DNA of 64,000 bases from an uncultured Actinomycetota bacterium (GCA_963816485.1 CAWFKU010000004.1:642454-706453), one strand, 5' to 3'; counted from the stretch's first letter, positions 29,073 through 59,968 are shown. Notes: generated from the sequence alone by a model not told the origin. Made by a program: numbers and translations.

Positions 29073-29073
29073 C
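29031..29073 (+). repeat. attL core (3' 43 nt of tRNA-Thr)
   Basis: ctcgtaatgaacaggtcgtcggttcgattccgacaggcggctc is identical to 51614-51656. Confidence 0.85.
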
Positions 29074-37715: not shown

Positions 37716-38013
37716 CGTTCCGCGACCGCAGGTGACCTGTCACCACCTGCCCGTCGGTGTCAACCTAGAGAAACGGCCGTAGGGTCGGCCGGGGAGGCCC
37801 GGGCAAGAGGGCTCTCCGAGCGGGTAATGATCAGTGGCCGTGTTCAGGCAGCCACCGGCCCGTCCTGGCTGCGGCGTCCACCTAGGTGAATTCGGGCGGT
37901 AGGTGATGACAGGTCACCTGCCGGGGTGTGAGCCTAAGATCGCGATGCAGCGGCCGGGTAACGGCTGCGGCGGAGTCGATGAACCGCCTGGCAAGGGATG
38001 CCAGTGAAACTGG

Positions 38014-38353
38014 AGGAGGGCCCATGACCGCCGATACACCTGTCCTTGACACCCTCGCCGACATCACCGCGGCGTCGGTCGAGCACAATTCTCTTGCCCC
38101 GCGCGAGCTCATGCTCGCCAGGATCGCCGCCCTGATCGCGGTGGACGCGCCGCCTGCCTCCTACCTCGCCAACGCCGGCGCCGCCGAGGACAGCGGGGTC
38201 ACCGCCGACGACGTCCAGGGAGTCATGATCGCGGTTGCCCCGGTGGTGGGCACAGCCAGGGTGGTCTCGGCAGGCGGGAAGATCCTTAGGGCGCTGGGTT
38301 TCGCGATTGAGGTGGCCGCCGAGTTGGCCGACGACGCCGATGCGGGGCAGTAG
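38014..38353 (+). CDS. Carboxymuconolactone decarboxylase (AhpD-like) family protein
   Basis: ATG 38014 after GGAGGAGGG. LAPRELMLARIAALIAVDAPPASYLANAGAAEDSGVTADDVQGVMIAVAPVVGTARVVSA. Confidence 0.65.
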
Positions 38354-38889
38354 CAGCAACCAGGCCCAAAGGTCGAGGAAGTGATCGAGAACGCTGTGAC
38401 CAGGGCGGAGAAGCAGACAACCAAGGAGCTTGACGTGGATCTGAAGGACCTCGACAAGGGCCATCGCGGCGGTCGAACGGCTCGGTGATCTCAGGGCGGG
38501 CAGCCGCCGGACGGTCTCAGGGCGGCTGACGCGAACCTGACGATTCTGCGGGCCTGCTTTCTGTGGGGAGATATCGGCGCTCAGCTGGAAAATGACCGCT
38601 GGGCGGCCGGGCTGGAAGGCCTCGGGTCGCCTTGGCGGCCATCGGCTTGCTGGGCGGTTGGCACGGGCCTACCATCGAAGACCCGTCCTAGGCGGCCGGA
38701 CTACGAATACACGCACGCAGCCTGACTCAGCCAGAACCCGCAGGTCACCCGGACTGAATCGTATTGTCGAGGTACAAGATCAGACCGGCGGCGCAGGTGG
38801 CTGCCGTGTCGACGCCCGGAAACCCGCCGATGTGGCGGGGCGCGATCCGTCAGTAGGGTCGGTCTGAACGTATCGTGGAAGGAGGCCTG

Positions 38890-39237: not shown

Positions 39238-39349
39238 TGGGCCTGCGGCTTCAGCCGCGCATCGCGTGGCCGATGCTTTTCCGTTGGCCAGACGGCTTCC
39301 GTCGTCCTCGCCCTCGGCGTCTGTTGGTCTCGAAGTTGGTGGTTCTCCT

Positions 39350-40291
39350 TCACCGGGTGAAGCGTTCCCACCATTCCGGATCCGGACGGAACGGCGCTGC
39401 CGGCAGGCCGGTGGCATCGGTGTCCACCCGGTAGACCAGTCCGGCGGCCAGATCGGAGCGGCGCTGCTCGTCGGTCCAGCCCTCTGTCGCTGTCGTGACG
39501 AAGAGCCGGTGCAGGCCGGGGCCGCCGAAGGCACAGCACGTGCACTGCTGGGCCGGGATGGGGTACACGTCGCGCAGCGAGCCGTCGGGTGCGTAGTGGT
39601 TGACCCGCCCGCCGCCGTAGATCGCCACCCAGAGGTCACCCGCAGCGTCCACCGTCATCCCGTCTGGTGCTCCGATGTCTTCGGGCACGGTGACCAGGAC
39701 TCGCCCGGCGGAGATGGTGCCGCGATCACCGTCGAAGGTGAACGCGTGGACCACCCGCGGGCCGCTGTCCACTAGGTACATTGTCCGCCCGTCGGGGCTC
39801 CAGCCAATTCCGTTGGAGATCGTCAGGCCCTCGAGCACCACCTCGGTCCGCCCTGTCCGGTCCAGCCGGTAGAGCGCGCCCCCGCCGGTGTGGTGGTCGT
39901 CGGCCAGGGTCCCGCCCCAGAACCTGCCCTGGGGATCGCAGGCGCCGTCGTTCATGCGGGTCCCGGCCGGTGCGACCTGGGCGATGGTGCGGTGGGTGCC
40001 GTCGAGCGCGAGGTGAACGAAGCCGCGCCCGGCCCCCAGTACCCAGCCGTCGTCCCCCTGGATGGGAGCGATCATCCCGACCGTTCCAGGCAGCTGGTAG
40101 ACCCCGACGCGCTCGATCAGGCCGTCCTCGCGGAGCAGGCCCCGGGCGACCCGTCCGGCCAGGATGTCGACTGCCAGCAGCTCGCCGCGGCGGCCGTCCC
40201 ACCGGATGCCCTCACCGAGCTGAGTCTGCTCGGTATTGCAGGCGACTGCCTGGCCGTCTCGCAGGGGACCGTTTTTCGTGTTAGTTACCAT
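39350..40291 (-). CDS. SMP-30/gluconolactonase/LRE family protein (sugar lactonase)
   Basis: ATG 40291 after GGAGG. QLGEGIRWDGRRGELLAVDILAGRV..., NDGACDPQGRFWGGT, ISNGIGWSPDGRTMYLVDS, PDGMTVDAAGDLWVA. Last gene of the minus-strand operon. Confidence 0.85.
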   Translation of the reverse strand: MVTNTKNGPLRDGQAVACNTEQTQLGEGIRWDGRRGELLAVDILAGRVARGLLREDGLIERVGVYQLPGTVGMIAPIQGDDGWVLGAGRGFVHLALDGTHRTIAQVAPAGTRMNDGACDPQGRFWGGTLADDHHTGGGALYRLDRTGRTEVVLEGLTISNGIGWSPDGRTMYLVDSGPRVVHAFTFDGDRGTISAGRVLVTVPEDIGAPDGMTVDAAGDLWVAIYGGGRVNHYAPDGSLRDVYPIPAQQCTCCAFGGPGLHRLFVTTATEGWTDEQRRSDLAAGLVYRVDTDATGLPAAPFRPDPEWWERFTR

Positions 40292-40293
40292 TG

Positions 40294-41340
40294 TCAGCCT
40301 CCGAAGTCGACGACGACCTTGATGTCGTCTGGCCCGCGCTGCAGGGCGTCGGCGATGTTCTGGGGCGGGACCCGGCGGGAGATCAGCCGGGCCAGCCAGG
40401 CCCGGTCGGCCCGGGCCAGCTCCTCGGCGGCCCGGTAGAAGTGCCGCCGGTTGGCGTTGACCGAGCCGAGGACCACGTTGTTCTGCAGGACGACCTGTTT
40501 GGCGACGTCGGCCGTGGATAGCCCGCTCGGCGCCCCTCCGCTGCCCACTCCGGTGAGGCAGACCACCCCGCCGGCGCCGACGTGGCGGATCGAGTCGATG
40601 ATCACCGAGCCGACCCCGGTGCACTCGATCACGACATCGGGTTCGAGGCCCAGGGCGTCAATGGCCCCGGCATGGTAGGTAGCGCCGAGGTCGGAGACGA
40701 GCTGAGGCTTGGCGCCCTTGGTGACCTGGTCGAGGACGTGGACGTCGAGCCCGTGCTGGACGCCGATCAGGGCGGCGAGCATGCCGATCGGGCCGGCGCC
40801 GGTGACCAGCACGTGCCGGGGTTCCCAGAAGGCCCGCGCTCGCATGGCCGCGACCAGTTCCCAGGCCTTGGCCACCACGGTGGCCAGCTCGAGCAGCACG
40901 CCGAGGACGCCGAGGGAGGGGTCGAGCTTGGTGAAGTACCCGGGTTCGATCCGCCAGCGTTCGGACATGAACCCGTCGATCTGCTTGATGCCCCGCTCGG
41001 TGTACTGACCGTTGCGGCACATATCCCACTCACCGACGGCGCAGTTGGGGCAGGGCACCGGGTCGGGGCGCCGGACGATCCCGACGATAAGGTCGCCGGC
41101 CTGCAGCCCGCTGCGCGGCCCGGGATCCACGACCCGGCCGAGCGACTCGTGGCCGAGGATGAGCCGGTCCCGCCCGGGAGGCGCCCAGCCGTAGGCGCCC
41201 GAGGTGATCTCGACGTCCGTTCCGCAGATGCCGACGGCCACCGCCTCGACCAGGACCGAGCCGGTGCTCTGGTCCGGTTCGGGGACCTCCTCGAAGCGAA
41301 CCGACCCCGCGACGCCCGGCTGAACCGTTACTGCTTTCAT
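40294..41340 (-). CDS. Zinc-dependent MDR dehydrogenase, glucose 1-dehydrogenase-like
   Basis: MKAVTVQPG...VAVGICGTDVEITSGAYGWAPPGRDRLILGHESLGRVV..., CPNCAVGEWDMCRNGQYTERGI, VLVTGAGPIGMLAAL. Its stop lies 2 nt before the lactonase ATG, and its ATG overlaps the upstream stop. Confidence 0.8.
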   Translation of the reverse strand: MKAVTVQPGVAGSVRFEEVPEPDQSTGSVLVEAVAVGICGTDVEITSGAYGWAPPGRDRLILGHESLGRVVDPGPRSGLQAGDLIVGIVRRPDPVPCPNCAVGEWDMCRNGQYTERGIKQIDGFMSERWRIEPGYFTKLDPSLGVLGVLLELATVVAKAWELVAAMRARAFWEPRHVLVTGAGPIGMLAALIGVQHGLDVHVLDQVTKGAKPQLVSDLGATYHAGAIDALGLEPDVVIECTGVGSVIIDSIRHVGAGGVVCLTGVGSGGAPSGLSTADVAKQVVLQNNVVLGSVNANRRHFYRAAEELARADRAWLARLISRRVPPQNIADALQRGPDDIKVVVDFGG

Positions 41341-44300
41341 GACTGCTCCCCAGATAGTCTTTTTCGCTGGGCCGGAGGCGCGATCTGAATCACCGGGAGT
41401 TGAGCTCTCCGTCGCGGGAGAGCGGGCGCTGCCCCTCGCCCGGCGGGACGATCGGCCCGCAGCCGCGCGCATGACGGGCAGAGCTCGCGGTCCAGAAGGG
41501 CCGCCATGTGATCCGGCAGGCGATCGCGGATGAATTCCCGGTGCGCGGGCGTCTGCGTCGGCGCGCCGCATTCGCTACAGGTCAGCAGCGGCTGCTCGCA
41601 CACGACGGTTCCGGTGATGACCGTGCGGCGCACGAGGTCCGGCGCGGCGCCGCCGAGCGCGCCAGCCAACAGGTCGACCTCATCCTCGATCCGGATGGCG
41701 CCGGTCGGGCATACCTGGGTGCAGGCGCCGCAGCCGATGCACAGCTCGGCTGGGCGGGTGAAGTCGAAGTAGGCGAGCCGGCCGGCGTCGGTGTCTGACA
41801 TGCGCAGCGCGTCGACGCCCATCTCGCTGCAGGCTGCCATGCACAGGCCGCAGCCGATGCAGACGTCGCAGCGCAGGCAGCGGCGCGCCTCGTCGTGTGC
41901 CATCGCGTCAGTCAGGCCCTCCTCGATCTGGACGTAGTTGCCGAGGCCGACAACGTCGTCGGCGGTCCGCTCGGGCATCACGGCACGGGGCAGGTAGGTG
42001 CGATCGTCCGCCCCGACGGTCAGGGGAATGACGTCGGCGCGGCGTACTGGCGTGCCGGTGGCGACGTCCATGGGCTCCCCGCGCAGCCAGGCATCGATCG
42101 CGTTCGCGGCGATCTTCCCGGAGCGGATGGCCTCCACGACCGTCCGCGGGCCGTGCTCGACGTCGCCCCCGGCGTAGACGCCTGGCACCTTGGTCATCAG
42201 AGTCTTCGGGTCGGTGAGGATGAAGCCGTGGGTGGTCTCGACCTCGCTGCCGTGCAGGATCGTCAGGTCGGTGCCCTGACCGGTGGCGAGGATCACGTGG
42301 TCGCCCTCGAGCTTCAGCAGGCGGGCGGCGTCGAACTTCGGATCAAAGGCTCCGGTCTCGTCGTGGACCTGCTCGCAGAACTGGAAGGTGGTCTCGCCGT
42401 CCGCCCCGATCCGGACCGGGCCCCAGCCGGGGTGCAGTTGCACGCCTTCCCCGACGGCGTTCTCGATCTCGTGGGCGCTGGCCGGCATCTCGCGGCGGTT
42501 CTCAAGGGAGACCATGTCGACATGCGTTGCGCCTTGGCGCAGGGCCGTCAAGGCGACGTCGATCGCGACGTTGCCGCCGCCGACGACGATCACCCGCGGC
42601 CCTACCCGGACCGGCTGGCCGCTGCGCACGTCCCGAAGGAAATCGATGCCCCCGAGCACGAAGGGCTGATGGACACCTTCGATCGGGATCAGGCGCGAGC
42701 GCTGGGTGCCGAGGCCGAGGAACACGGCGTCGTAGTTCTTGCGGAAGGCATCGAGGCTGCCGACCTCGGCACTGGTGCGGATCGCGATGCCCAGCGCCCG
42801 GATCTGGTTGAGCTCCTGGTCGAGGAGGTCGGGCGGCAGGCGGTAGGCCGGAATGCCGTAGCGCAGCATTCCGCCGGCCTTCTCCTGCTCCTCCAAGATC
42901 TCGACCTCGTGACCGAAGGTGCGCAGGTAGTAGGCAGCGGTGAGGCCGGCTGGGCCGAGCCGGCGATGCCGATCCGCTTGCCGCTGTCCGGCGCGATCTC
43001 GGGTTTCGGGTAGCCGCCGTCGGCGAGGCAGTGCTCGGCCGCCTTGGCCTTCATCGGCCGGATGAACACGGCGCCGTTGCTGTCGCCGCGAACGCAGGCC
43101 GATTCGCACGGCGCCGGGCAGACCAGGCCGCAGGTCAGCGGCAGCGGGTTGTCACGCCTGATGACCTCGATCGCCGCCCGGTAGTCGCCATGGCCGATGT
43201 GAGCGATGAAGCTCGGGATGTCGATGTTGGCCGGGCACGTGCCGTGACACGGCGCGGCCTGGTGCTCGAAGCACAGCCCCTCCGGGCAGGACTCGCGCCG
43301 GGCGTGACGCTCCCACTGCTGGCGGTAGTAGCGCAGCGAGCTGCCCAGCGGCCACGCGGCCGCCAGCCCCTGCGTGCCCAGCTCGAGCGCGACTTCGTCG
43401 AGTGCTCGGAGATCGGCGGCGTCACCGCGGCCGAGCGTTAGCTCGGCCACCAGGCGGCCGGCCCGGGCGAGCAGGGGCCGCACCGGATCGCCTTCGGCGT
43501 TGTCGGCGAGCTGCCAGTGCCGGTAGAGCGCGCGGCGCGTCTGGCGCAGCAGGCACGCGCCCTCGGCCATCACCATCAGCGTGGACGGCACGGGCTCGAC
43601 GCCGGCGGAGGCGAGCGACAGCGGCCGGCATGACACGTCGGCCTCGGACAGCGGTAGGAAGCCGCCCAGGCCGTCGTCGAACACGAGCACCGGGTCCTGG
43701 CCCGCCACCTCAACGCCACCACCCCAGGCGTCGATCTGCCGGCGCAGGCTCTGTGACTGGGCGAGCTCGACCAGGCCGCGCTGCTTGATGCCGCGCCGCA
43801 GCGTCAGCAACGACGCCCCGGGGCCCGACGCGCCGGCGAACAGCAGGGCGATCCGGCACCAGGTCTCAGGCGTGTGGATGAGCCGCGAGGCGTCGTTGGG
43901 CGGTCCCTCCGCCCACGGGCCGGGGTGGCTGTCGCGCTGCACGGTCAGCTGCATGCGGGGCGTGGTGACGTGGGCGAGCGAACGGATCGCGTCGACGGCG
44001 TTCAGGAGGGCGGCTTCGTGACCGTTCAGCTCGGCCGGGAGGCGCAACTGGACCTCGCGGCTGTCGCGCAGGCCAGCGGCGATCAGCACCCCCTCGGCCA
44101 GCAGCCGCGGAGCGCCATCGAGGACCGCGGCTGTGCCGCGGGCGCGCGGATCGAGGCCGGTGGCATCGATCACCAGTACCGTAGGGCCGATGCCGCGCAG
44201 AAACCGGCGCCAGGCCACAGAGACCGGCTCGCCCGCACGGCTGCTCTCCGCGAGGCCCGACTCCTGCACGCGCTGCAACCGCTGCAACGGCGTCAGCTCC

Positions 44301-44416
44301 CGCGCCTGGGCCAGGCCCGGCAACGCGCCGGCGAGCGTGGCCGCCGGCGGCACAGGACCGACCAGGGCGGCGGCGCCCGGGTCAAGCCAGCTCGGCAGCG
44401 TCTGGACCGCGCTCAT
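41337..44416 (-). pseudogene. Fusion oxidoreductase: degenerate NuoF/RnfC-like N-domain + GltD-like (4Fe-4S + FAD/NAD(P)) + C-terminal 2x[4Fe-4S] ferredoxin. Reading frame broken once near 42955
   Basis: ORF 42689..44632 (ATG 44416) ends in out-of-frame text after GKRIGIAGS. ORF 41337..43109 continues with PAGLTAAYYLRTFGHEVEILEEQEKAGGMLRYGIPAYRLP..., IVVGGGNVAIDVA, VYAGGD, then CLRCDVCIGCGLC and CIGCGACTQVCP. One missing base in ggctcggcccagcc (expected GSGPAG) restores a single ~1026-aa ORF. This is either a genuine frameshift or a homopolymer sequencing error. Confidence 0.75.
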
Positions 44417-44940
44417 GGCGAGGTGTCCTCGCCGCCCGGCGGCTCGGCGAGGATGTGCCGGGCGTAGCGCTCGCGGCGCGGGTCCGGCAGCTCGTTGGCC
44501 TCGCCGAAGGACAGGCAACCGGTCACGCACTTGGTGACGCAGGCGGGCTGCAGCCCGGCGTCGAGCCGGTCCATGCAGTAATCGCACTTGACCACCTTGT
44601 TCGTGGCGGGGTCCCACTGCGGAGTGCCCCACGGACAGGCCGCGATACAGCTCTTGCAGCCGATGCAGAGGCTGTCCTCGACAAACACGATGCCGTCCTT
44701 CTCACGTTTTTGCATCGCGCCGGTCGGGCACGCCCGGACGCACCACGGGTCTTCGCAGTGGAAGCACGGCATGAACACGAAGCGGGTCAGGGGCAGTCCG
44801 TCGGCCTCGACCGGTTCCAGCGCGATGACCCGGCACGGATCGGGGCCGGGACCGAGCTGCTTGTTGGTCTTGCAATGGACTTCGCAGGCCAGGCACCCGA
44901 TGCAGTTGGCCTCGTCGTGGCGAAGCTCGTATTTGCTCAT
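44413..44940 (-). CDS. 4Fe-4S dicluster subunit (DmsB/PsrB-like electron-transfer subunit)
   Basis: CIGCLACEVHC, CFHCEDPWCVRACP, CIGCKSCIAACP, CDYC...CVTKC. ATGA-type overlaps with both neighbours. Confidence 0.85.
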   Translation of the reverse strand: MSKYELRHDEANCIGCLACEVHCKTNKQLGPGPDPCRVIALEPVEADGLPLTRFVFMPCFHCEDPWCVRACPTGAMQKREKDGIVFVEDSLCIGCKSCIAACPWGTPQWDPATNKVVKCDYCMDRLDAGLQPACVTKCVTGCLSFGEANELPDPRRERYARHILAEPPGGEDTSP

Positions 44941-47090
44941 CCGGCTGCTCCTTCCGGTGTCCGGCGCCTCACCTGCACGACCGTCTCGGTCAGCGCATTG
45001 CCGCCGCCGGCGGGATCGAAGTCGTAGAGCTTGCCGTGCTGCAGGCGCTGGTCGGCGACGCCGAGGCCGCGGGCGCGGGTGGCGAGTGGCACCGTGGCGC
45101 CGTAGCCGTGCAACATGAACACCGCGTCGGGATGGATCCAGCGGGTGACCTTCGCCGGCAGGCAGCCGGTGTAGCGGCCACCGCCGTTGACCTCCACCTC
45201 GTCGCCGTCGGCGATCCCGAGCGCCGCGGCACGGTCGGGGTGGATCCAGAGCACCTGTTTGGGTGCTCTCTCGTTGAGCAGGGGATTGTTGAGCGACTGG
45301 CCCTGCGCGAGCGTCGCCGTCTTCGCGAACAGCAGCGTGAACTTCTCGCCCGTCGGCGCATCTTTGGGGACGTACGCCGGCAGGCTCTCAAGCCCGGCCT
45401 GCTTGAGGACCTCGCTCTCGATCTCGATCTTCCCTGAGGGCGTCGGGAACGTGAGCTCGTCGCGGGGGATCAGTTTCGGAGCCGCCGCCAAGCCGACCAG
45501 GCCGGCCTCGCGCATCTTCGAGACGGTGACGCCGGTGCCATCGAGCTGGTAATTCCACAGCTCCTCGATGGTCTCGAAGTCAAGCGCCTGTCTGATGCCC
45601 ATCCGGTGCAGGATCTCGCGGAAGATCCACCACGCCGGGCGGCTGTCGAAGCGCGGTGCGATCGCCTGGTCGCGCATGGCGAAGACCGGCACCGGGCCGT
45701 TCATCTGGCAGAGGATGTTCGCGCGCTCCAGGTAGGTCGACTCGGGGAGGATGACGTCGGCGAACCAGCCCAGTTCCGAGTAGCGCACGTCGATCGAGAC
45801 GAGCAGCTTCAGCTTCTCGATCGCCCGTTGCGTCGCCTCCGGGTCGGGCATGCCGGTGAACGGGTCGTGGCGGTAGGCGAAGTAGGCGCCGATCCCGTAC
45901 GGCTGCCCCGTCTCCATCGCGGCGAAGGCCTGATGCAGCATGCCGATCGCCGGATCCCATTGCGGCCGCTTGCCGCCAGCGCCATCCACGCGCGGCTCCC
46001 TGACCTCCGGCACCCGATCTATCAGATGGTTCAAGCCCTTGCGGCCGTAGTGCTCGGGCGGCTTCCCCAGCACGCATCCACCCGGAAGCTCGATGTTGCC
46101 CATCAGCGCGTTCAGGATCAGCGCCGACCGGCTCACGTAAAACGACTGCTTGTGACGAGCTGACATCCACCCCGGATGGAAGATCACATGTGGTGCGTCC
46201 GCAGCGATCTCGGTCACGAACGCGCGAAGCTCGGCGGCGGGAACGCCGGTGTGCGGCTCCTGCCACTCCGGCGTTGTGTCCTTAACCGCCTCCCGCAGGT
46301 AGTCCAGGCCGGAGACGAAACGGGCGACGAAGTCCTTGTCGTAGGCATCCTGCCTCAGGACCTCATGGATTATGGCGAGGTTCAGCGCGTAGTCGCTCTT
46401 CGGTCGCACCTGCCAGTAGCGGGTGGCCTTGGACGCCGTGATCGTGGCGCGCGGATCGATGTAGGTGCAGCGCATCCCCCTCGCCACCGCGGCCATGAAC
46501 GCCTTAGCCTCCTTGACCATCAGCGATTCGACGACATTGCGGCCGTAGAGCACGAGATGCTTGCAGTGCTGGTAGTCGAACAAGAGCCCTGCGGCGCCGA
46601 AGCCGTAGAGCGAGCGTGTGGCGTTATGAACATTGCCGGCGCAAGCGGCATCGTGATCGAAGTAGTTCGGCGAGCCAAGCGCCCGAACGAAGGTCTGGGT
46701 CAGGTCAGTAAAGGGGCCGCCACGATCGGAAAGCGCGATACCGCGCCCGCCGAAGACATCGATCGTCTCAGTCAGCTTCTCGGCGATGTAGTCGAGGGCC
46801 TCGTCCCAGGACACCCGCCGCCACTGGCCGCCGCCACGCTCGCCAGCACGGATCAGCGGCGCCTGCGGCCGCTCGTCGTCAGACTCCAGAAACAGGCCGG
46901 CCGCGCCCTTCGCGCACAGGCTGGCGCCGAGGGCCCGGTCGTGCGTATTGCCCTGCAGCCAGGTCACACGGCCGTCCTCGACCGTCACCTCCATCGGGCA
47001 ACGCACCGCGCACATGCCGCACATGCTGTAGACCGTGCGCCGGCCTGGAGCACCCACGCCGCTTACGTTCGGTGCCATAGGGGAAGTCAT
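44937..47090 (-). CDS. Molybdopterin (bis-PGD) oxidoreductase catalytic subunit, cytoplasmic (no Tat signal), substrate unknown
   Basis: ATG 47090 after GGAG. The N-terminal FS0 motif is CGMCAVRC...CAKG. A candidate Mo-ligand Cys is in FDHDAACAGNVHNATRSLYG. The C-terminal beta-barrel region reads LWIHPDRAAALGIADGDEVEV. No RRxF(L/V)K twin-arginine motif upstream. Confidence 0.85.
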   Translation of the reverse strand: MTSPMAPNVSGVGAPGRRTVYSMCGMCAVRCPMEVTVEDGRVTWLQGNTHDRALGASLCAKGAAGLFLESDDERPQAPLIRAGERGGGQWRRVSWDEALDYIAEKLTETIDVFGGRGIALSDRGGPFTDLTQTFVRALGSPNYFDHDAACAGNVHNATRSLYGFGAAGLLFDYQHCKHLVLYGRNVVESLMVKEAKAFMAAVARGMRCTYIDPRATITASKATRYWQVRPKSDYALNLAIIHEVLRQDAYDKDFVARFVSGLDYLREAVKDTTPEWQEPHTGVPAAELRAFVTEIAADAPHVIFHPGWMSARHKQSFYVSRSALILNALMGNIELPGGCVLGKPPEHYGRKGLNHLIDRVPEVREPRVDGAGGKRPQWDPAIGMLHQAFAAMETGQPYGIGAYFAYRHDPFTGMPDPEATQRAIEKLKLLVSIDVRYSELGWFADVILPESTYLERANILCQMNGPVPVFAMRDQAIAPRFDSRPAWWIFREILHRMGIRQALDFETIEELWNYQLDGTGVTVSKMREAGLVGLAAAPKLIPRDELTFPTPSGKIEIESEVLKQAGLESLPAYVPKDAPTGEKFTLLFAKTATLAQGQSLNNPLLNERAPKQVLWIHPDRAAALGIADGDEVEVNGGGRYTGCLPAKVTRWIHPDAVFMLHGYGATVPLATRARGLGVADQRLQHGKLYDFDPAGGGNALTETVVQVRRRTPEGAAG

Positions 47091-47636
47091 CGCAATCTCC
47101 GTCCCCGCGCCGCCATTGGCGTCAGGCCTCCGGGCCGCGCGGCGCTTGGCTGGCGGTGTACTTGTCCTCGCATCGATCGATCGTGGCACCCTCCCGGAAT
47201 GGCAGGCAGGGCCGTAGCGCCTGCTCCAAGGGGACCAATGGCCTCGCGAGGACCGGGGCGGCGAGGCAGCCGGGTAGGCGGGGGACTGTGCATCCGCGAC
47301 AGGGCGTCGGCACGCCCAGGGTCGTCGCCGTCGGCGGCGGCAATATCGTCGAGGCTTGGGCTTCGAAATCATGGTGGCCGAGGCCGAGGTGGCCGAGGAC
47401 GCGGGCGCCACTCAGTAAGCCCAGGCTCCCTTCAGGCACCCGATGAGCCGGGAGATCGCCGGCTCCCCAGGTCGCCGATCTCGTGGCCGGACCGCAGGTC
47501 CTTGACCAGGAGTATGGCCGTCCGATCTGGGCATCGACAACACCGGGCACTAGGAGGAGGTACCTATCCCGGCCGACGTCAACAGCACGCTGCAGACCGG
47601 CGGCGACGTGCCAGTGGAGGAAGCTGGCGGCATGTA

Positions 47637-48944
47637 ATGTCTTTCTCGCCAACTTCCAGCAAAAGGGGCCTGGCAGTGGATACTGGCCTTGCGCTTGTCG
47701 GTCTGACGCTGCTGCTCGTCGCCGCGGTATCCCGACCTCTGTCGAGCACGCCCATCACGCCCGCGATCGTGGTGGTCGCGGTCGGTGTTCTGGTCGGCCC
47801 GCTCGTGCTTAACGACCTGACGGTGCGACCCACGAGCTCGACGGTGCAGACACTCGCCGACGCGACGCTCGCGGTGGTGCTGTTCTCGGATTCCTCGCGC
47901 GTGAACCTGCGGGCGCTGCGGCGTGAGGCGTCGATGCCTGTCCGCTTGCTTGGCCTCGGTCTGCCGCTGACGATCGTGCTGGGTGGGCTGATCGCGGTTG
48001 CCCTGTTCGGCTCGTTCTCGATCAGCGAGGCGCTGATCCTTGGCGTGATCCTCGCTCCGACCGACGCCGGGCTTGGTAGCGCGGTCGTCACGGACACGAG
48101 GCTTCCGCAAGTTGTTCGGCAGTCGCTGAACGTCGAGAGCGGCCTGAACGACGGGATCTGCGTCCCGCTGCTGTTGATCGTGCTGGCTACCGTCTCCGGC
48201 GCTGGCAGCGAGTCCCACCCGTTGCGGGTGCTCGCCGAGGAGATCGGCTACGGGCTGCTCGGCGGGCTCGCTGCTGGCGCGCTCGCCGCGGCGGTTGTGA
48301 TCCTTGCCGGACGACGGCACTTGATCGACGATGCTTGGCGGCAGATCATTCCGTTGTCCTCAGCGGTGCTCGCGTACGGGATCGCGAACGCCCTGGGCGG
48401 TTCGGGATTCATCGCCGCGTTCGTAGCCGGCGCACTGTTCGGCCTGCTCGCTGGCGACCGAGCCGCGGGAATGATGCCCTTCACGGAGGAAGCCGGGGCC
48501 GCGCTCGACAACGTTACGTTCCTCGTGTTCGGTGCCGTGCTGCTCGGCCCGGCGTTCGAGCATATGAGCTGGCAGATCGCGCTGTATGCCGTGCTGAGCC
48601 TCACGGTCGTGCGGATGTTGCCGGTGGCGATCTCGCTGTGGGGCACTCACGCGCGGGTTCCGACGGTCGCGTTCATTGGCTGGTTTGGCCCGCGCGGGCT
48701 TGCGTCGATCGTGTTCGCGGTGATCGTCGAGGACGCGCATCTCCCTCACGCCGGGACGATCGTCGCGGTCAGCTACCTGACCGTCGGGCTGTCGGTCCTA
48801 GTACACGGGCTTTCGGCCGCGCCGCTGGTAAGTCGCTATGCCAGCTGGTACCAAGCCGCCGCGGAGAAGAGCCCTCCTGTGATGGAGAGCCAGCCAGCGC
48901 ACGAGCACCGGGCGCGGGGATCCGCCGCGGTGCCGAGCAGGTGA
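47637..48944 (+). CDS. Cation:proton antiporter (CPA1, Na+/H+ exchanger family)
   Basis: C-terminal part of ORF 46176..48944. ATG 47637 (or GTG 47676). LILGVILAPTDAGLG, SGLNDGICVPLL, WFGPRGLASIVFA. About 12 TM segments. Confidence 0.8.
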   Translation: MSFSPTSSKRGLAVDTGLALVGLTLLLVAAVSRPLSSTPITPAIVVVAVGVLVGPLVLNDLTVRPTSSTVQTLADATLAVVLFSDSSRVNLRALRREASMPVRLLGLGLPLTIVLGGLIAVALFGSFSISEALILGVILAPTDAGLGSAVVTDTRLPQVVRQSLNVESGLNDGICVPLLLIVLATVSGAGSESHPLRVLAEEIGYGLLGGLAAGALAAAVVILAGRRHLIDDAWRQIIPLSSAVLAYGIANALGGSGFIAAFVAGALFGLLAGDRAAGMMPFTEEAGAALDNVTFLVFGAVLLGPAFEHMSWQIALYAVLSLTVVRMLPVAISLWGTHARVPTVAFIGWFGPRGLASIVFAVIVEDAHLPHAGTIVAVSYLTVGLSVLVHGLSAAPLVSRYASWYQAAAEKSPPVMESQPAHEHRARGSAAVPSR

Positions 48945-53935: not shown

Positions 53936-54616
53936 TCAGCCGGTGACTATCAGGTCATCACGAACGTTGCTGACGCCGACGCCCCTCCATGCAGCGTCGA
54001 TGACCGCGTCATGCTCGCCCAAGGTCTCGACATGGCCGCTGATAGTGACGGTGCTGTCGCTGGCGGCGACCTGCACGTCGGTGTCACCCGGTAGCACCCC
54101 GTAGCGGTCCAGGGCGCCTTGCACCAGATCGGTCACGTCAGCAGCCTGGATGTCTTTGAGGATCTCGATGTCGTCGCTGATGCCGCGGACGCCGGTCAGC
54201 CCCGCGACGGCCTGCTCGGCCGCGTCGCGCTCGAACCGGTTAGCCACCATGCCGGTCAGCCAGACATCTCCCTCGGTGACGCTGGCCTCGACGCTGGCAG
54301 GCACGCTGACGCTCATCTTCAGGGCCTTGTTCGCATCCGTCGCCAGAAGCACATCGTCCCGGAAATCGGCAAACGGCAGGTCAACCATCAGGTGGTTATG
54401 CACCCTGGTGACCCCTTGCACCCGCCTGGCCGCCGCAGCAGCGTGCAGGTACTGCGGGTAGCTGGGCACGGTGCCGTTCAGCGCCACATTCCCGCTCATG
54501 TTCTTCACGATTATGCGCGACGCGTCGACGAGCGGGTCGTAGTCGAGTTCCTTCCGGACAGCCTCGCGGACATCCTTGCTCCTGCGAGCTGCCTCGCGTG
54601 GGCTCTTTACCGCCAC
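53936..54616 (-). CDS. BON-domain protein (three BON repeats, OsmY-like, no signal peptide)
   Basis: GTG 54616 after GGAAGGGGGA. DVREAVRKELDYDPLVDASRIIVKNMSGNVALNGTVPSY...GVTRVHNHL; ...VWLTGMVANRFERDAAEQAVAGLTGVRGISDDIEI; ...VTISGHVETLGEHDAVIDAAWRGVGVSNVRDDLIVTG. Confidence 0.8.
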   Translation of the reverse strand: MAVKSPREAARRSKDVREAVRKELDYDPLVDASRIIVKNMSGNVALNGTVPSYPQYLHAAAAARRVQGVTRVHNHLMVDLPFADFRDDVLLATDANKALKMSVSVPASVEASVTEGDVWLTGMVANRFERDAAEQAVAGLTGVRGISDDIEILKDIQAADVTDLVQGALDRYGVLPGDTDVQVAASDSTVTISGHVETLGEHDAVIDAAWRGVGVSNVRDDLIVTG

Positions 54617-54967
54617 GGCTAGGTCCCCCTTCCCGCCAGCCGGCTGGTGCTCTCTGCTTATGTCCCTTGAACCTACCCACGGCCAGCAACCGCCAGTCGT
54701 CGCAATCATCGGCTTCTGGATGCCTGGTGGCCGTGGGCGCCGGATTCCAGCAGCAGGAGAATCGGCCAGCTATTTCGTAGCGGGCCTCCAGCCACGTGGA
54801 GGTGGTCAGCCGCCAGCACTCCTCAGCATCGCCGTGGTCAGCCCGGTCACCTGAAGGGGGCCTGTGGGCCGCGCGCCAACGGCGGGCGGCTGCTGAACGC
54901 AAGCGGGCCGCTCGCCGTGGACGCACGGCCCGCTTGCACGCCCGGCGCCGACAGGAAGCAGGCGAGC

Positions 54968-55384
54968 TCAGGCCGAGTTGAGCTGCTTGGCGTCCTGGCT
55001 GGTGATCTCGACCTCGCGCGGCTTCGCCGACTCGCGCACGGGGATCGACAGAGGCAGCACGCCGGTGGTGGTGTAGTCAGCACTCATGTGCTCGGGGTCG
55101 AGCGTTTCGCCGCGGAATACCTGCCGGGTGAACACGCCGGCTGGGCGCTCGGCGACGATCAGTTCTGGTCCGTCTGGCTGACTGCCGGCGCGCTCGGCGC
55201 GGATCGTCAGGACGCTCTGCTCGACGGTCAGGTCGATCGAGTCGAGCTGGATGCCGGGGAGATCAAGGTGAATGTAGAACGCGTCGCCCTGGCGGTATGC
55301 GTCCATCGGCATCGCCGCAGGCCTTGCCATCGTGCCGAGGACCTGCTGGGTGAGCCGGTCGAACTGGGCCACGAGCTTGCGCAT
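54968..55384 (-). CDS. Hsp20/alpha-crystallin family small heat-shock protein
   Basis: ATG 55384. MRKLVAQFDRLTQQVLGTMARPAAMPMDAYRQGDAFYIHLDLPGIQLDSIDLTVEQSVLTIRAER...VFTRQV.LGETLD...ADYTTGVLPLSIPV. Confidence 0.85.
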   Translation of the reverse strand: MRKLVAQFDRLTQQVLGTMARPAAMPMDAYRQGDAFYIHLDLPGIQLDSIDLTVEQSVLTIRAERAGSQPDGPELIVAERPAGVFTRQVFRGETLDPEHMSADYTTTGVLPLSIPVRESAKPREVEITSQDAKQLNSA

Positions 55385-55459
55385 CCGCTTCAATGCGATG
55401 GCGCTGGCATCCAGCGGCGGTCCCTCGACCAGGCGCCGTAGTGCCTGGTCCGCTCGCCT

Positions 55460-55576
55460 CACGTCAAACGCTGGCGGCCGCTGCCCGAGCAGGTAGTTCT
55501 CCGCCCAGTAGTTCCAGATCAGGTTCCCTGGGCGCAGCCAGGCGAACACCTCGGCCTCCTCTCGGGTGTACCGGCC
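55460..55576 (-). pseudogene. Fragment of a poly(3-hydroxyalkanoate) synthase (PhaC) gene
   Basis: GRYTREEAEVFAWLRPGNLIWNYWAENYLLGQRPPAFDV matches the conserved F..LRPNDLIWNYWVNNYLLG..PPAFD segment of PhaC. It is isolated, with no flanking PhaC sequence in frame. Confidence 0.55.
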
Positions 55577-55682
55577 TGGTTTCTCTTCCGCCGCAGGTGC
55601 CGAAGTGCTCCCAGCGGTCGGCCGAATCGGGGGCCCGCGACAGCTCGGGCCGGTCCAGATAACACATGACGTCGGCCATCGG

Positions 55683-56336
55683 TCAGCCAGTGACCTCGGT
55701 TTCGTTGATGACGACCATGACCCCCTGAGCCAGCCAGGCAGCCGCCTCGACGGCATCACGCTGCACGCGGGTCCGCACATGTCCGACCAGCACGACCTTG
55801 CCGCCGGTGACATTCGCGGTCACGTGAGTGTCGTCGGGAAGTACCTGGTGGCGGTCGAGCGCCTGCCTGACCAGCCGGTTGACGTCGGCCGGGTCCACCT
55901 CGAAGGTGAGCTCGACTTGGTCTTCAACGTTCCGCACCCCGGGTAGCCCGATCACGGCTGATTCGGCCGCAGCGCGCTGCCGCCGGTACTTGACCATGCC
56001 AGTCAGGCGCAGGTTTCCGTTCTTAGCGATCGCCTTGACCCGTTCGAGCCCAGCAGCGCTGGCCGCAAGGGCATTGTTCGCCTCCGTGGCCAGCCTGGCG
56101 TCATCGCGCTGATTCTCCTGCGGCAGCGCGACCTCCAGGTGATTGCGCACGCTGGTGACCCCGGCGATGCGCCAGGCCGCGTGTACGGCTTCGAGGTATT
56201 GCGGGTAGCTGGGTACGGTCCCGTTAAGCGACACGTCTCCGCTGATCGTCAGGACGGTGATGCCGTCGGCGTCGATAACCGGGTCGTCGGCTAGCTCTGC
56301 TTCCACTGCCTCGCGGACCTCTTTGGTCTTGGGCAT
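55683..56336 (-). CDS. BON-domain protein (three BON repeats)
   Basis: ATG 56336 after GGAAGGGAG. MPKTKEVREAVEAELADDPVIDADGITVLTISGDVSLNGTVPSYPQYLEA...GVTSVRNHL...LRLTGMVKYRRQRAAAESAVIGLPGVRNVEDQVEL...VVLVGHVRTRVQRDAVEAAAW. Confidence 0.8.
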   Translation of the reverse strand: MPKTKEVREAVEAELADDPVIDADGITVLTISGDVSLNGTVPSYPQYLEAVHAAWRIAGVTSVRNHLEVALPQENQRDDARLATEANNALAASAAGLERVKAIAKNGNLRLTGMVKYRRQRAAAESAVIGLPGVRNVEDQVELTFEVDPADVNRLVRQALDRHQVLPDDTHVTANVTGGKVVLVGHVRTRVQRDAVEAAAWLAQGVMVVINETEVTG

Positions 56337-56430
56337 GCCTAGTCTCCCTTCCGGCTGCGACGTGGCTGCCTGCTGATTTCCTTCCCAGTTGCCTACGTCA
56401 GACATCAGGATCTATTGGAGCCGAGGTTCG

Positions 56431-56772: not shown

Positions 56773-56859
56773 GGGATCCTCCTTCGCTTAAGGCCGTTGA
56801 ACGGCAGCCGGCCGAGAGTCCCAGCGCCACGCCGCGGCCCGTCCGGCGACTTGCTGACG

Positions 56860-56888
56860 AACTTATCATGACTGTGATGGATTATCAA
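56860..56888 (-). promoter_or_regulatory. Candidate sigma70-type promoter for the doxX-BON-hsp20 transcription unit, inside a 140-bp AT-rich patch
   Basis: Minus strand reads TTGATA (56888-56883), 17 nt, TAAGTT (56865-56860), about 90 nt upstream of doxX ATG 56772. Duplicated TGACGAAC and GATGGGAG words occur nearby. Confidence 0.3.
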
Positions 56889-57314: not shown

Positions 57315-57848
57315 TCAGGACCGTTGCGCGTGCCGCACCTCGAAACCGACGACGATGTCGGAGATGCCGCGGAACAGGGCGAAGAACCGGACCCAGAAGA
57401 TGAGCAGGGCTGCTCTGGTCGGAAAGGCCTGCTGCGATGCCCAGAATCCGATGATGATCTCAGCGATTCCGGCAAGCAGGCCGAGCCACCAGGCTGGGTT
57501 GATCGTCCTGGCGTTGATGGACATCACCAGGTCCAGGCTGCCGCGCAGGATGAGCAGCAGCCCGACGATGGTGGCGAGCGCCCAGAACGCGTTGTACGGG
57601 TGGACGAAGGCCCAGATGGCTGCGCCGATGAACAGGACGCTCATCAGGATGTGCAGCCAGCCCCAGCTGGCCCGGGCCGATGCCAGCACAATCTCGCTTA
57701 CAGACGCGATCAGGAACACCGCGCCGATCAGCACCCCGATGGTGGTGATCGAGGTGGTGCTGAACCGCAGCACCGCAGCCGAAATGATCAGCCAAGCGAC
57801 GCCGGTCGCCAGCAGGATCCACCACGGCCCGCCGAGCTCCCTGAGCAT
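57315..57848 (-). CDS. HdeD/DUF308 family membrane protein
   Basis: MLRELGGPWWILLATGVAWLIISAAVLRF... has six helices with the repeated W..(L/I)..G(I/V)..(I/L)..G pattern. An alternative start is at 57932. Confidence 0.65.
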   Translation of the reverse strand: MLRELGGPWWILLATGVAWLIISAAVLRFSTTSITTIGVLIGAVFLIASVSEIVLASARASWGWLHILMSVLFIGAAIWAFVHPYNAFWALATIVGLLLILRGSLDLVMSINARTINPAWWLGLLAGIAEIIIGFWASQQAFPTRAALLIFWVRFFALFRGISDIVVGFEVRHAQRS

Positions 57849-57964
57849 GGCACGACGGCGTTCCTGCGGCTGAGCTGGAGTAGTCGTTTGCGTGCGGTAG
57901 TCATTGCACGCTCTCTTCAGCGGACCCGGCATTTCAGCCGGGTCGGTCGGATGCGGCGGGGCCG

Positions 57965-58651
57965 TCAGCCGGTGATCACCAGGTCATCGCGGACGGCGGT
58001 GACGCCGAGCCCGGCCCAGGCGGCCTGGATCACCGCGTCGTGCTCGGCCCAGTCCACGACGTGCCCGGTGAGCGTGATGGTGCCGTCGCTGGCGTTGACC
58101 ATGACGTCGCTGTCGTCAGGGAGCAGCGAGTACCGGTCGAGCGCGTCCTGGACCAGGAACGAAACGTCTTCGGCTTCGACGTCGCTGAAGATCTCGATGT
58201 CGTTGGTGATGCCGCGTACGCCGGTGAGCCCGGCGACCGCCTGGCCGGCGGCGTCGCGCTCGAACCCGTTCCGCACCGTGCCGGTGATCCAGATGTTGCC
58301 TTCGTAGGAACTGGCCTCGACGGTGGCCGGCACACTGACGGTCTGGGCCAGGATGTTGTTCGCCGCCGTGGTCAGCTGCGGGTCGTCGCGGTAGCTGGCG
58401 GGCGGAAGGGCCACCGCCAGGTGGTTATGCACTCGGGTGACGCCCTTGACGCGCTTGGCGGCGTCGGCTGCGTGCAGGTACTGCACGTAGCTCGGCACGG
58501 TGCCGTTCAGCGCCACGTCCCCGTTCATGTTCTTCACCCTGATACCGGCCGCATCGACCAGCGGGTCGAAGTCCAGCTCCTTCACCACGGCCGCGCGGAT
58601 GTCCTTGGCGGCCTGGACCTTTTCCCGGATCGGGTCCTTCTTCGGTGCCAT
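57965..58651 (-). CDS. BON-domain protein (three BON repeats)
   Basis: ATG 58651 after GGGAGGGGGA. MAPKKDPIREKVQAAKDIRAAVVKELDFDPLVDAAGIRVKNMNGDVALNGTVPSY...GVTRVHNHL...IWITGTVRNGFERDAAGQAVAGLTGVRGITNDIEI...ITLTGHVVDWAEHDAVIQAAWAGLGVTAVRDDLVITG. Confidence 0.8.
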   Translation of the reverse strand: MAPKKDPIREKVQAAKDIRAAVVKELDFDPLVDAAGIRVKNMNGDVALNGTVPSYVQYLHAADAAKRVKGVTRVHNHLAVALPPASYRDDPQLTTAANNILAQTVSVPATVEASSYEGNIWITGTVRNGFERDAAGQAVAGLTGVRGITNDIEIFSDVEAEDVSFLVQDALDRYSLLPDDSDVMVNASDGTITLTGHVVDWAEHDAVIQAAWAGLGVTAVRDDLVITG

Positions 58652-58859
58652 CGCGGGTCCCCCTCCCAGCCAGCACGAATAGCCATCATTGCGGCTGTAC
58701 CCCCGTCGGCCGCTCCCTAGACGGACAGCCGGCCTCCTTCTGGCAGGGCCGCCGGGGCCGCCCCGAGCAGTCGCCAGAACACGGCGGCGGCGTACGTCGC
58801 CGGGCAGCAAGGACGAGCAAGATCATTCGAGGCTGTTGGTGGCACCATTCCGCCGTCCG

Positions 58860-59906: not shown

Positions 59907-59968
59907 GCGCAATTCGCTTCGAACGGGACGTGGGTGGCACGCAATAAGGCGCCTGCGCGCTGCTCAAC

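Follow-up and report, generated by a model that had tools for sequence, protein, structure and literature searches.

Respiratory enzymes of the Psr/Phs clade, such as PsrABC of Thermus (2VPW) and PhsABC of Salmonella, combine three parts: a periplasmic catalytic subunit, a four-cluster partner of the PsrB/DmsB type, and a PsrC/NrfD membrane anchor that oxidises quinol. The catalytic subunit has a three-domain molybdenum-bis(pyranopterin guanine dinucleotide) (Mo-bisPGD) fold, an FS0 [4Fe-4S] cluster and a cysteine Mo ligand. In addition, there are soluble NAD-linked Mo/W enzymes (FdsABG, AorABC, and SfrAB of Geobacter) which consist of a catalytic subunit, an Fe-S subunit and a flavoprotein. 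In these membrane-free enzymes, a pyridine-nucleotide flavoprotein feeds or drains the Mo/W centre through Fe-S clusters. Both the Psr/Phs clade and the wiring of soluble Mo/W enzymes to NAD-binding flavoproteins are known already. In this study, we analysed a 64,000-nucleotide stretch of DNA from an uncultured Actinomycetota bacterium (GCA_963816485.1 CAWFKU010000004.1:642454-706453; hereafter, the window) and found that five genes at positions 39,350 to 47,090 encode a Mo enzyme which shares features with both kinds of system.

The catalytic fold, the FS0 cluster, the Cys ligand and the four-cluster partner are those of PsrABC and PhsABC. However, the window enzyme has no twin-arginine translocation (Tat) signal and is thus predicted to be cytoplasmic, a soluble NAD(H)-type Fe-S flavoprotein is encoded in the place of the anchor, and PsrA residues His145 and Arg332 are replaced by Arg and Trp. 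The design logic is that of FdsABG, AorABC and SfrAB, whereas the catalytic subunit belongs to the Psr/Phs clade, not to Fdh or AOR, the flavoprotein joins a dead NuoF-like domain to GltD-like and ferredoxin parts in one fused protein, and the operon includes a dedicated glucose dehydrogenase (GDH) and a lactonase. A Psr/Phs-type enzyme without Tat signal or anchor, joined to such a fused flavoprotein, appears to be new. The same appears true of its conserved linkage to a glucose dehydrogenase module, and of the breadth and conservation of the cluster. Our full-text search of the literature found no description of this enzyme group. The five genes, in the order of transcription, are as follows.

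47090..44937, minus strand: Mo subunit gene, 717 aa, with Molybdop_Fe4S4, Molybdopterin and Molydop_binding domains (Pfam)
44940..44413, minus strand: FeS subunit gene, 175 aa, with Fer4_11 (Pfam), PsrB/DmsB-like
44416..41337, minus strand: flavoprotein gene, 1026 aa after repair of one nucleotide, with Fer4_20, Pyr_redox_2 and a ferredoxin domain
41340..40294, minus strand: GDH-like gene, 348 aa, with Glu_dehyd_C and ADH_N (Pfam)
40291..39350, minus strand: lactonase gene, 313 aa, with SGL (Pfam), SMP-30/gluconolactonase family

The sequence-only reading that preceded this work had described five abutting minus-strand genes, and the open reading frames (ORFs) and junctions are as it described them. 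Three of the four junctions are ATGA overlaps (44937-44940, 44413-44416 and 41337-41340), and the junction between the GDH and lactonase genes is TGAcaATG, with a 2-nucleotide gap at 40292-40293. Its domain labels also match the Pfam and NCBIfam assignments, except that the NuoF part has to be corrected to a degenerate one. A purine-rich, Shine-Dalgarno-like stretch lies upstream of all five start codons, and no terminator-like site was found on the minus strand inside the five-gene block. Because of the ATGA overlaps, the Shine-Dalgarno-like sequences and the lack of an internal minus-strand terminator, the five genes are best explained as one co-transcribed operon, the local copy of a widespread and horizontally spread cluster.

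The clade affinity of the Mo subunit was judged from profile-model scores and from PDB and pairwise matches. All three Pfam domains exceeded their cutoffs. The best NCBIfam model was PhsA with 482.7 bits (the next model reached 184 bits), which is below the equivalog cutoff of 694 and so leaves the protein outside PhsABC/PsrABC proper. The best PDB match was PsrA of Thermus thermophilus (2VPW; E = 9e-102, 345 bits), ahead of acetylene hydratase (181 bits), ArrA (124 bits) and FdhF. Tight clustering with a characterised enzyme, which the earlier reading had named as evidence that would speak against it, was not found: the identity is 31-32% to enterobacterial PhsA and roughly 38% (by eye) to Thermus PsrA. 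In addition, the FS0 cysteines Cys24, Cys27, Cys31 and Cys59 are invariant in 112 orthologs and align with PsrA Cys44, Cys47, Cys51 and Cys79. Cys150 (AACAGN), equally invariant, aligns with the PsrA Mo ligand Cys173. The FS0 cluster and the candidate Cys ligand proposed earlier are therefore upheld by the alignment to PsrA. By these criteria of similarity, the catalytic subunit is assigned to the Psr/Phs clade of the dimethyl sulfoxide (DMSO) reductase (Mo/W-bisPGD) superfamily, with a predicted Mo-bisPGD, FS0 cluster and Cys ligand. Meanwhile, PsrA His145 and Arg332, the residues proposed for polysulfide handling, are replaced by Arg123 and Trp308, both invariant in the 112 orthologs, and an equally invariant Arg312-His313-Lys314 lies near Trp308.

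Only about 22 residues precede FS0 in the Mo subunit, with no hydrophobic h-region and no Tat signal. The ortholog N-termini inspected have an equally short leader and showed no N-terminal extension or Tat motif. In addition, the nucleotide homology to relatives stops within about 15 nucleotides upstream of the ATG at 47090. The short leader, the absence of a Tat motif and the end of homology at the ATG indicate that the Mo enzyme is cytoplasmic, not periplasmic. No gene for an NrfD/PsrC-type anchor was found in the operon; the third gene encodes a soluble flavoprotein in the window and in 80 of 80 related loci. The N-terminus, the ortholog leaders and the operon content thus agree with the earlier statement that neither a Tat signal nor an anchor gene is present.

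In a search of 1.84 billion cluster representatives, all orthologs of the Mo subunit fell into one 50%-identity cluster. The next full-length relatives (P0138-P0147) are at most 47% identical and likewise have no signal peptide, and longer Psr/Phs-like relatives at 30-38% identity are extended by 40-60 residues at the N-terminus, the place of a possible signal peptide. PhsA was the best model for all sister clusters, below its cutoff. No ortholog was found in the plasmid collection, which held only PhsA at 31-32% identity. As far as these comparisons go, the Mo-subunit family forms a discrete clade. The nearest sister, P0138 (47% identity), is part of a two-gene unit of Mo and FeS genes that lacks a Tat signal and a flavoprotein (L165/L166, 8001-10564), and its host genome encodes cytochrome c3.

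The FeS subunit matched Fer4_11 of Pfam with 92 bits. Among NCBIfam models, DMSO_dmsB reached 140 bits, below its cutoff, and the protein stayed below every equivalog cutoff. Four Cys groups are seen in the translation, which is consistent with four [4Fe-4S] clusters. The FeS subunit was found in 80 of 80 related loci, with identities of 72-97%. The flavoprotein consists, in this order, of a degenerate NuoF-like domain (residues 1 to about 380), Fer4_20, Pyr_redox_2, a ferredoxin domain and a C-terminal Cys4 motif. In PDB comparisons, the stretch of residues 372-859 resembled the GltD-like NADPH modules of NfnA (NfnABC), the Stn-type transhydrogenase, NfnB, GltD and DPD (E = 1e-98 to 1e-43). 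The best structural relatives of this part are of the NfnAB/NfnABC/Stn type (PDB 9N5U, 9BOV, 8OH5, 4YLF and 5JCA), with which it shares the two [4Fe-4S] clusters of Fer4_20 and the fold for flavin adenine dinucleotide (FAD) and NAD(P)H. The conserved cysteines of the orthologs account for two GltD-type clusters (98-100% conserved), two ferredoxin-type clusters (2x[4Fe-4S]) and the C-terminal Cys4 motif.

Residues from about 120 to 383 weakly match NuoF/HydB in the PDB (E = 1e-14 to 1e-6), and NuoF-like and GltD-like parts likewise work together in Bfu-type enzymes. However, the glycine loop for flavin mononucleotide (FMN; GxGGAGF) and the cysteines of the N3 cluster (CxxCxxC...C) are absent from the window flavoprotein and from 61 of 61 orthologs. 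Still, the domain shows 69-79% conservation, and it can be described as a NuoF-like domain that has been kept although it is catalytically dead. Because the FMN loop and the N3 cluster are absent, bifurcation at the NuoF-like site is unlikely, and we rejected Bfu/Stn-like electron bifurcation for this site. Of the NuoF/GltD/ferredoxin fusion described in the sequence-only reading, the fusion itself and the GltD and ferredoxin parts hold, and the NuoF part is degenerate. The flavoprotein also differs from the Nfn/Stn-type modules in its nucleotide-binding motif and in its partner, which is a true Mo-bisPGD enzyme. Five NADPH-type PDB homologs carry YRR[ST]xxEMPA, where the window flavoprotein has SLEN-RR (SLExRREMPA). 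The form S/C-L-E-x-R-R-EMPA occurs in 33 of the 34 flavoprotein orthologs matched by pattern, with SLEQRD in the remaining one. This suggests that the flavoprotein uses NADH rather than NADPH.

It should be noted that the flavoprotein gene of the window runs in two frames, since one C of GGCTCCGG is absent at about position 42956, inside the GxGxxG (FAD) motif. The frameshift noted earlier is thus present in this sequence, as a single missing base. The extra C is present in 14 of the 14 closest relatives. When one base is restored, the protein is 1026 aa long and 92-95% identical to its closest relatives over the full length, and GC content at third codon positions (GC3) of the coding type is kept in both halves of the gene. 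Furthermore, about 540 kb of operon genes from the 80 loci contained 23 frame switches, each at a position of its own, or about one per 24 kb. The related loci are mostly from assemblies of uncultured genomes (metagenome-assembled genomes), mainly of the MFD series. This count also provides a useful estimate of the indel error rate of such assemblies. From the rate of frame switches, the GC3 and the full-length identity, we treat the frameshift as a probable assembly indel, and we are fairly confident of this. The other explanation is that the deletion is real, and that the operon here is a decaying pseudogene cluster whose complex is non-functional in this genome. The deletion relative to all 14 closest relatives and a truncated remnant of a LuxR-type regulator just downstream (38489-38686) would fit such decay. 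Against it stand the GC3 of both gene halves, the high identity of the repaired protein, the intact state of the other four genes, and the expectation that about 0.3 frame switches would occur by chance in a 7.7-kb operon at the rate found in the related loci. We therefore consider decay rather unlikely.

The fourth gene encodes an archaeal-type protein of the medium-chain dehydrogenase/reductase (MDR) family, with 204 bits for Glu_dehyd_C (cutoff 34.9) and an ADH_N domain. The best PDB matches were the glucose dehydrogenases of Haloferax (E = 2e-41) and Sulfolobus (E = 9e-39), and Cys39, His64 and Glu65 align with the Zn-ligand positions of the Haloferax enzyme. The beta2 strand ends in Asp (HVLDQ), where Haloferax GDH has GRR; HVLD[RQ] was found in all 22 GDH orthologs matched by the pattern (of 52). 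An acidic residue at the end of beta2 is a classical NAD(H) signature. Since acidic residues stand where NADP-type homologs have Arg-Arg, we infer that the nucleotide sites of both the GDH and the flavoprotein are of the NAD(H) type, not the NADP(H) type. The lactonase matched SGL of Pfam (PF08450) with 249 bits, and its PDB matches were SMP-30 family proteins and regucalcin. In other lineages, it is replaced by PF10282 lactonases or by more distant SMP-30 proteins.

To estimate the spread of the cluster, we scanned one genome per GTDB species by exact peptide patterns. This gave 236 confirmed relatives of the Mo subunit, which is a lower bound. The locus counts given here refer to the best 80 of these at least 236 relatives and to neighbourhoods within 10 kb. 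Families of neighbouring ORFs were clustered with a codon-position GC filter against antisense shadow ORFs, which are a problem in GC-rich DNA. The Mo, FeS and flavoprotein genes were syntenic in 80 of 80 loci, and the Mo subunits were 72-97% identical to that of the window across about nine phyla. The loci come from Actinomycetota (Actinomycetes, Acidimicrobiia and Thermoleophilia/Solirubrobacterales), Chloroflexota, Dormibacterota, Acidobacteriota, Bacteroidota (including Ignavibacteria), Planctomycetota, Gemmatimonadota and Desulfobacterota, and from Alpha-, Beta- and Gammaproteobacteria. The carriers are soil and sediment bacteria, and the majority of them are soil-dwelling heterotrophs of the Actinomycetota, Chloroflexota, Acidobacteriota and Bacteroidota. 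Two cultured carriers, Sulfurisoma sediminicola BSN1 (L079) and Allochromatium warmingii DSM 173 (L080), have the three redox genes.

Of the 80 loci, 57 had a GDH gene at most 10 kb from the Mo genes. It directly followed the three redox genes in 26 loci (in 24 of these together with a lactonase, the arrangement of the window), it directly preceded them in 18, and in the other 13 it had another position inside the 10-kb limit. If we count GDH, lactonases, GDE/GH63-like hydrolases, GlgX, GH15 trehalase-like proteins and glucose-6-phosphate dehydrogenase (G6PD), at least one glucose-releasing or glucose-oxidising gene was found in 66 loci, and five of the other 14 are truncated contigs. Some loci that lack GDH have other genes that would mobilise stores or yield NAD(P)H beside the redox genes, such as G6PD, GDE/GH63-like hydrolases or GlgX. 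For instance, large GH63/MGH1-like or GDE-like hydrolases occurred in 37 loci, a GlgX neighbour scored 734 bits (equivalog cutoff 641), and G6PD was directly upstream of the Mo gene in two loci (L025 and L043). Other neighbours were a GH15 TreH-like trehalase, a PF10282 lactonase of the 6-phosphogluconolactonase type and phosphofructokinase. Some Actinomycetes loci had MoeA a short way upstream. The adjacent GlgX, GDE/GH63-like and GH15 genes of the relatives support glucose as the predicted substrate of the GDH-like enzyme. A linkage that has outlasted repeated rearrangements in different phyla argues strongly for a functional connection. The gene-neighbourhood search proposed in the sequence-only reading thus showed co-occurrence, and its remark that the coupling is unusual did not stand, because the cluster is recurrent and conserved in about nine phyla.

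Two side observations concern the gene content of particular lineages. In five Betaproteobacteria loci (L058, L067, L074, L044 and L069), GDH is replaced by genes for a patatin-like lipase, a short-chain dehydrogenase/reductase (SDR), a protein of the acetoacetate decarboxylase family, DUF3141 and a Na+/Ca2+ exchanger. The patatin, SDR and acetoacetate decarboxylase set may be an alternative fuel module, perhaps derived from lipid or polyhydroxybutyrate. In addition, a conserved protein of about 183 aa without a Pfam match (family f14) was found in L013 (17771-18319) and 13 other loci; in Solirubrobacterales its gene is directly downstream of the lactonase gene, and no homolog was detected in the window.

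On this evidence, our leading reading is a sugar-fuelled, soluble, cytoplasmic NADH-dependent reductase, in which the oxidation of glucose to gluconate would supply NADH for the reduction of a small cytoplasmic acceptor. We hold this reading tentatively, as the one we favour but somewhat short of probable. The gene anatomy, the domain content, the cytoplasmic location, the conservation and the linkage are shown by the sequences, and from these we infer the direction of electron flow, the NADH specificity, the source of glucose and the substrate. Free glucose would be released from glycogen or trehalose, in other genomes by the adjacent GDE/GH63-like, GlgX and GH15 enzymes. The MDR-type GDH would oxidise the glucose, and the lactonase would form gluconate and make the step irreversible. 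The NADH from GDH would then reduce the FAD of the GltD-like module, and the electrons would cross about nine Fe-S clusters, in the flavoprotein and the four-cluster ferredoxin subunit, to the Mo centre. The Fe-S flavoprotein would thereby stand in for the membrane anchor of the respiratory Psr/Phs enzymes. The Mo centre would reduce a small soluble acceptor able to enter the cell, with no direct conservation of energy. The module may therefore serve, during stress, hypoxia or dormancy, as an electron sink or as a detoxifying reductase that brings its own supply of fuel. The earlier proposal that sugar oxidation feeds NAD(P)H to a soluble reductase is thus favoured by the comparative linkage (GDH in 57 of 80 loci, in three gene orders), with the amendment that the sites look NAD(H)-type.

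A related use of glucose is known from methanotrophs, for which a gluconate shunt from glycogen through free glucose and GDH to gluconate was shown experimentally, with cyanobacteria also cited; the methanotroph GDH was identified by its approximately 39% identity to the GDH of Bacillus subtilis (PMC8062543). The link of GDH, with or without lactonase, to glycogen or trehalose breakdown is the same in both cases, and free glucose is oxidised without ATP. However, the window GDH is of the archaeal-type MDR family (Glu_dehyd_C) and is joined to a redox complex, and no homolog of gluconate kinase was found among the annotated genes of the clusters.

Several points weigh against the sugar-fuelled reading. 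It is drawn from genes and sequences. The NAD(H) assignment is a matter of motif logic only. Psr-like chemistry is not assured, because PsrA His145 and Arg332 are not kept. The window flavoprotein gene is frameshifted, and this copy may be inactive if the deletion is real. Sulfur-related neighbours, described below, are found in a minority of loci and are shared by closely related genomes. Furthermore, 23 of the 80 Mo-gene loci have no GDH within 10 kb. In a reciprocal analysis, metagenome contigs were scanned with the GDH, which gave at least 578 relatives. Among the best 80 of these (66-92% identity), Mo genes were beside GDH only in L087, L090, L091, L093 and L125, with a fragment in L089. 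Seven loci, the majority of those with long flanks, had no Mo genes within 10 kb (L086, L095, L119, L132, L143, L158 and L164). There, the GDH genes adjoin GH63/GDE-like hydrolases, MIP channels, CoADR-rhodanese, SulP, DUF2252 and ion transporters. Because this reverse association is weak, GDH seems not to need the Mo enzyme, and GDH and lactonase seem to form a broader 'gluconate shunt' module that the Mo enzyme joins. By gene neighbourhood, the Mo enzyme is usually attached to the GDH and glucan hydrolase module, not the reverse.

The same results bear on another explanation, co-location without metabolic coupling. Here the genes would share a stress or dormancy neighbourhood, GDH and lactonase would serve as a gluconate shunt into central metabolism, and the soluble Mo enzyme would have a separate task, for example to repair or detoxify S-oxides, N-oxides or oxyanions, with the general NAD(P)H pool. 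The many GDH orthologs that stand with GH63/GDE-like, MIP, CoADR-rhodanese and SulP genes without Mo genes, the documented glycogen gluconate shunt (PMC8062543), and the stress-rich flanks of the window and its relatives (Hsp20, BON, DUF308, DUF1269, Usp, ion transporters and DUF2252) all fit such an explanation. However, the GDH gene directly follows the flavoprotein gene in the window, with an ATGA overlap, and in 25 other loci, and the linkage is kept through three gene orders across about nine phyla. In addition, the place immediately before the Mo gene is occupied by G6PD in L025 and L043, and both nucleotide sites share NAD(H)-type signatures. We regard co-location without coupling as possible but doubtful.

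For the acceptor of the sugar-fuelled reductase, a sulfur compound (polysulfide or other sulfane sulfur, or thiosulfate) is the most likely class, and the altered active site would also allow other anions or oxides. A sulfur acceptor is favoured by the Psr/Phs clade, by the Cys ligand and by the CoADR-rhodanese, rhodanese and SulP neighbours. At least one of these three families was found beside the cluster in Bacteroidales, one Actinomycetes locus, Acidobacteriota, Chloroflexia, Holophagales and Sulfurisoma. For example, CoADR-rhodanese, a persulfide reductase family, occurs in six Bacteroidales loci and beside the operon of a close Actinomycetes relative (L020). Rhodanese genes were found in five loci, which represent four lineages, and in one case the rhodanese gene immediately precedes the Mo gene. 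SulP permeases are in the Bacteroidales clusters and, in Sulfurisoma (L079), after the three redox genes. CoADR-rhodanese is also directly upstream of GDH in two contigs without Mo genes. Since CoADR-rhodanese and the Mo complex are both found beside the same GDH, two unrelated candidate sulfane-sulfur reductases may share one fuel module. The links of CoADR-rhodanese to GDH orthologs without Mo genes were seen in L092 (410-3135), L095 (8048-11041), L086, L132, L140 and L163.

Npsr/CoADR-rhodanese, NSR and sulfhydrogenase are also cytoplasmic and reduce sulfane sulfur with NAD(P)H without conserving energy, as a fermentative sink or for the control of reactive sulfur species. However, the Mo complex, a candidate for such activity, belongs to unrelated protein families. 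A cytoplasmic NAD(P)H polysulfide reductase has been reported for Thermotoga (PMC9431562).

From their gene content, the Bacteroidales loci appear to have a more complete form of the cluster, which also includes genes related to sulfur and to transport. In L046, L048, L050 and L051 (about 400-16500), a same-strand array consists of CoADR-rhodanese, an SBF transporter, SulP, a GH63-like hydrolase, GDH, Mo, FeS, flavoprotein and MIP genes; a MetA-type outer-membrane protein heads the array in L048 and L051 only. We also considered two other readings of these neighbours. An arsenic reading, with SBF and MIP as ACR3-like and AqpS-like proteins, was rejected: SBF matched only the generic BASS model, and weakly, and MIP is generic. 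In the sulfoglycolytic Entner-Doudoroff pathway, a sulfoquinovose dehydrogenase and an SGL lactonase resemble the GDH and the SMP-30 lactonase. This sulfoquinovose reading was likewise rejected: the hydrolases found with the cluster are GlgX or resemble GDE or trehalase, and the annotated neighbours included neither a dehydratase nor an aldolase.

The sulfur context also fits a reverse direction, in which a soluble dehydrogenase, as one of several enzymes that make NAD(P)H within a stress regulon, would oxidise a low-potential inorganic donor and reduce NAD(P)+. The most plausible donor would be sulfite, as for the cytoplasmic SoeAB, or else sulfur derived from thiosulfate or sulfide. SoeABC is a cytoplasmic sulfite:quinone oxidoreductase with a Psr-like Mo subunit and an Fe-S subunit. 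The Mo subunit described here is likewise cytoplasmic and Psr-like, as SoeA is reported to be. In addition, the cluster is present in the sulfur oxidisers S. sediminicola and A. warmingii, SulP permeases are potential sulfate exporters (L079 and the Bacteroidales clusters), the rhodanese and CoADR-rhodanese neighbours fit the handling of sulfane sulfur, and GltD-like modules are reversible in principle. However, this direction leaves the tight, translationally coupled linkage to GDH, lactonase and glucan hydrolases unexplained, and most hosts are heterotrophic soil bacteria. Furthermore, SoeABC, which works oxidatively, has the membrane anchor SoeC, and SoeA is reported to be much larger (about 109 kDa). 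On balance, we find the reverse direction quite unlikely.

The sequence-only reading had also proposed that the Mo enzyme acts on a sugar-derived compound, made by GDH and lactonase. The physical linkage to sugar-oxidising genes is the one point that would fit, and we found no supporting evidence. The Mo genes also occur with G6PD, with the patatin, SDR and acetoacetate decarboxylase sets, or with no sugar gene. No homolog of gluconate dehydratase or 2-keto-3-deoxygluconate aldolase was found among the annotated neighbours, although no search was aimed at either family. To our knowledge, no enzyme of the Psr/Phs clade acts on carbohydrates. This proposal is very improbable.

The blastn comparison of the window with the related loci showed one sharply bounded block of homology (39300-47105) with 77-96% nucleotide identity: 94-96% to Actinomycetes metagenome-assembled genomes, 85-87% to Solirubrobacterales, and 77-78% to Chloroflexia in which the order of the five genes is unchanged. 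Outside the block, only a Na+/H+ exchanger and a DUF1269 paralog gave matches. The redox core follows its host in GC content, and its value was 0.3-10 points above that of the flanks in 22 of 23 loci for which this was measured. Pfam detected no domain of an integrase or a transposase among the flanking ORFs scanned, and no tRNA lies at the block borders, the nearest tRNAs being at 18 kb and 29 kb. The sharp borders and the high nucleotide identity across classes indicate that the operon probably spread horizontally. The description of the operon as island-borne is thus right in that it is a horizontally shared, sharply bounded block amid stress genes; no integrase, transposase or border tRNA was seen in the flanks scanned. 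A flanking 'repeat' was considered as a mobile element and rejected, as it consists of DUF1269 paralogs. The features around the block are as follows.

47484..48944, plus strand, divergent: Na+/H+ exchanger (Pfam Na_H_Exchanger, E = 3e-42)
38464..37934, minus strand (region 37842..38686): ORF of a DUF1269-like paralog, matched by blastn to the DUF1269 genes of L020 and L002
38489-38686, plus strand: remnant of a LuxR/MalT-type regulator, 66 aa (tblastn, 47% identity)
55813..54968, right flank: Hsp20
54709..53936, 56405..55683 and 58810..57965, right flank: three BON-domain (OsmY-like) proteins
57932..57315, right flank: DUF308/HdeD-like membrane protein
59969-61528, right flank: AI-2E transporter fused to a BON domain

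The exchanger gene is 89-90% identical in nucleotides to the neighbour in L002 and L018, and its family occurs in 14 of the 80 loci. Intact members of the DUF1269 and LuxR families are found around the operon in relatives, with intact large LuxR genes adjoining it in L008 and L017, and the LuxR remnant together with the DUF1269 paralog suggests a local deletion or rearrangement downstream of the operon. The right flank from 53936 to 61528 is a dense neighbourhood of stress genes. The flanks of the relatives add a Usp-domain SulP, DUF2252, CLC, a P-type ATPase, MalT/LuxR-type regulators and carbonic anhydrase. In a 92%-identical relative (L083, 18289-19756), the operon is closely followed by a fragment of a GIIM group II intron maturase and by an alpha-type carbonic anhydrase. 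Meanwhile, ARAGORN called a 'tRNA-His' at 28976-29073 with an unusual length (98 nucleotides) and anticodon (ATG), which may be spurious or an odd tRNA-like element.

The Mo-subunit family is large, with at least 236 confirmed matches among GTDB species genomes, and its conservation across phyla is unusual (72-97% identity, as against at most 47% to the next relatives). In the JGI pipeline, these Mo subunits are labelled 'thiosulfate/polysulfide reductase chain A'. Because of this label, sulfur-cycle inferences from metagenomes may mistake a soluble NAD(H)-linked enzyme for a respiratory reductase. A wider and more speculative proposal, which we consider unlikely as it stands, is a hitherto unrecognised lifestyle based on reserves. 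In it, a soluble and mobile NADH:acceptor oxidoreductase of the Psr/Phs clade would allow soil and sediment bacteria of many phyla, most of them aerobic, to oxidise glucose from stored glycogen or trehalose to gluconate without a respiratory chain, and the electrons would pass to an inorganic sulfur species, or to some other small acceptor, in the cytoplasm. If this proposal is true, genes annotated as thiosulfate/polysulfide reductase in soil metagenomes would represent a different, non-respiratory process. If the coupling to glucose oxidation is true, the cluster would be a compact, transferable module for disposing of the reducing power of storage carbohydrates, and it would be relevant to the survival of non-fermenting soil bacteria during hypoxia, drying and starvation.

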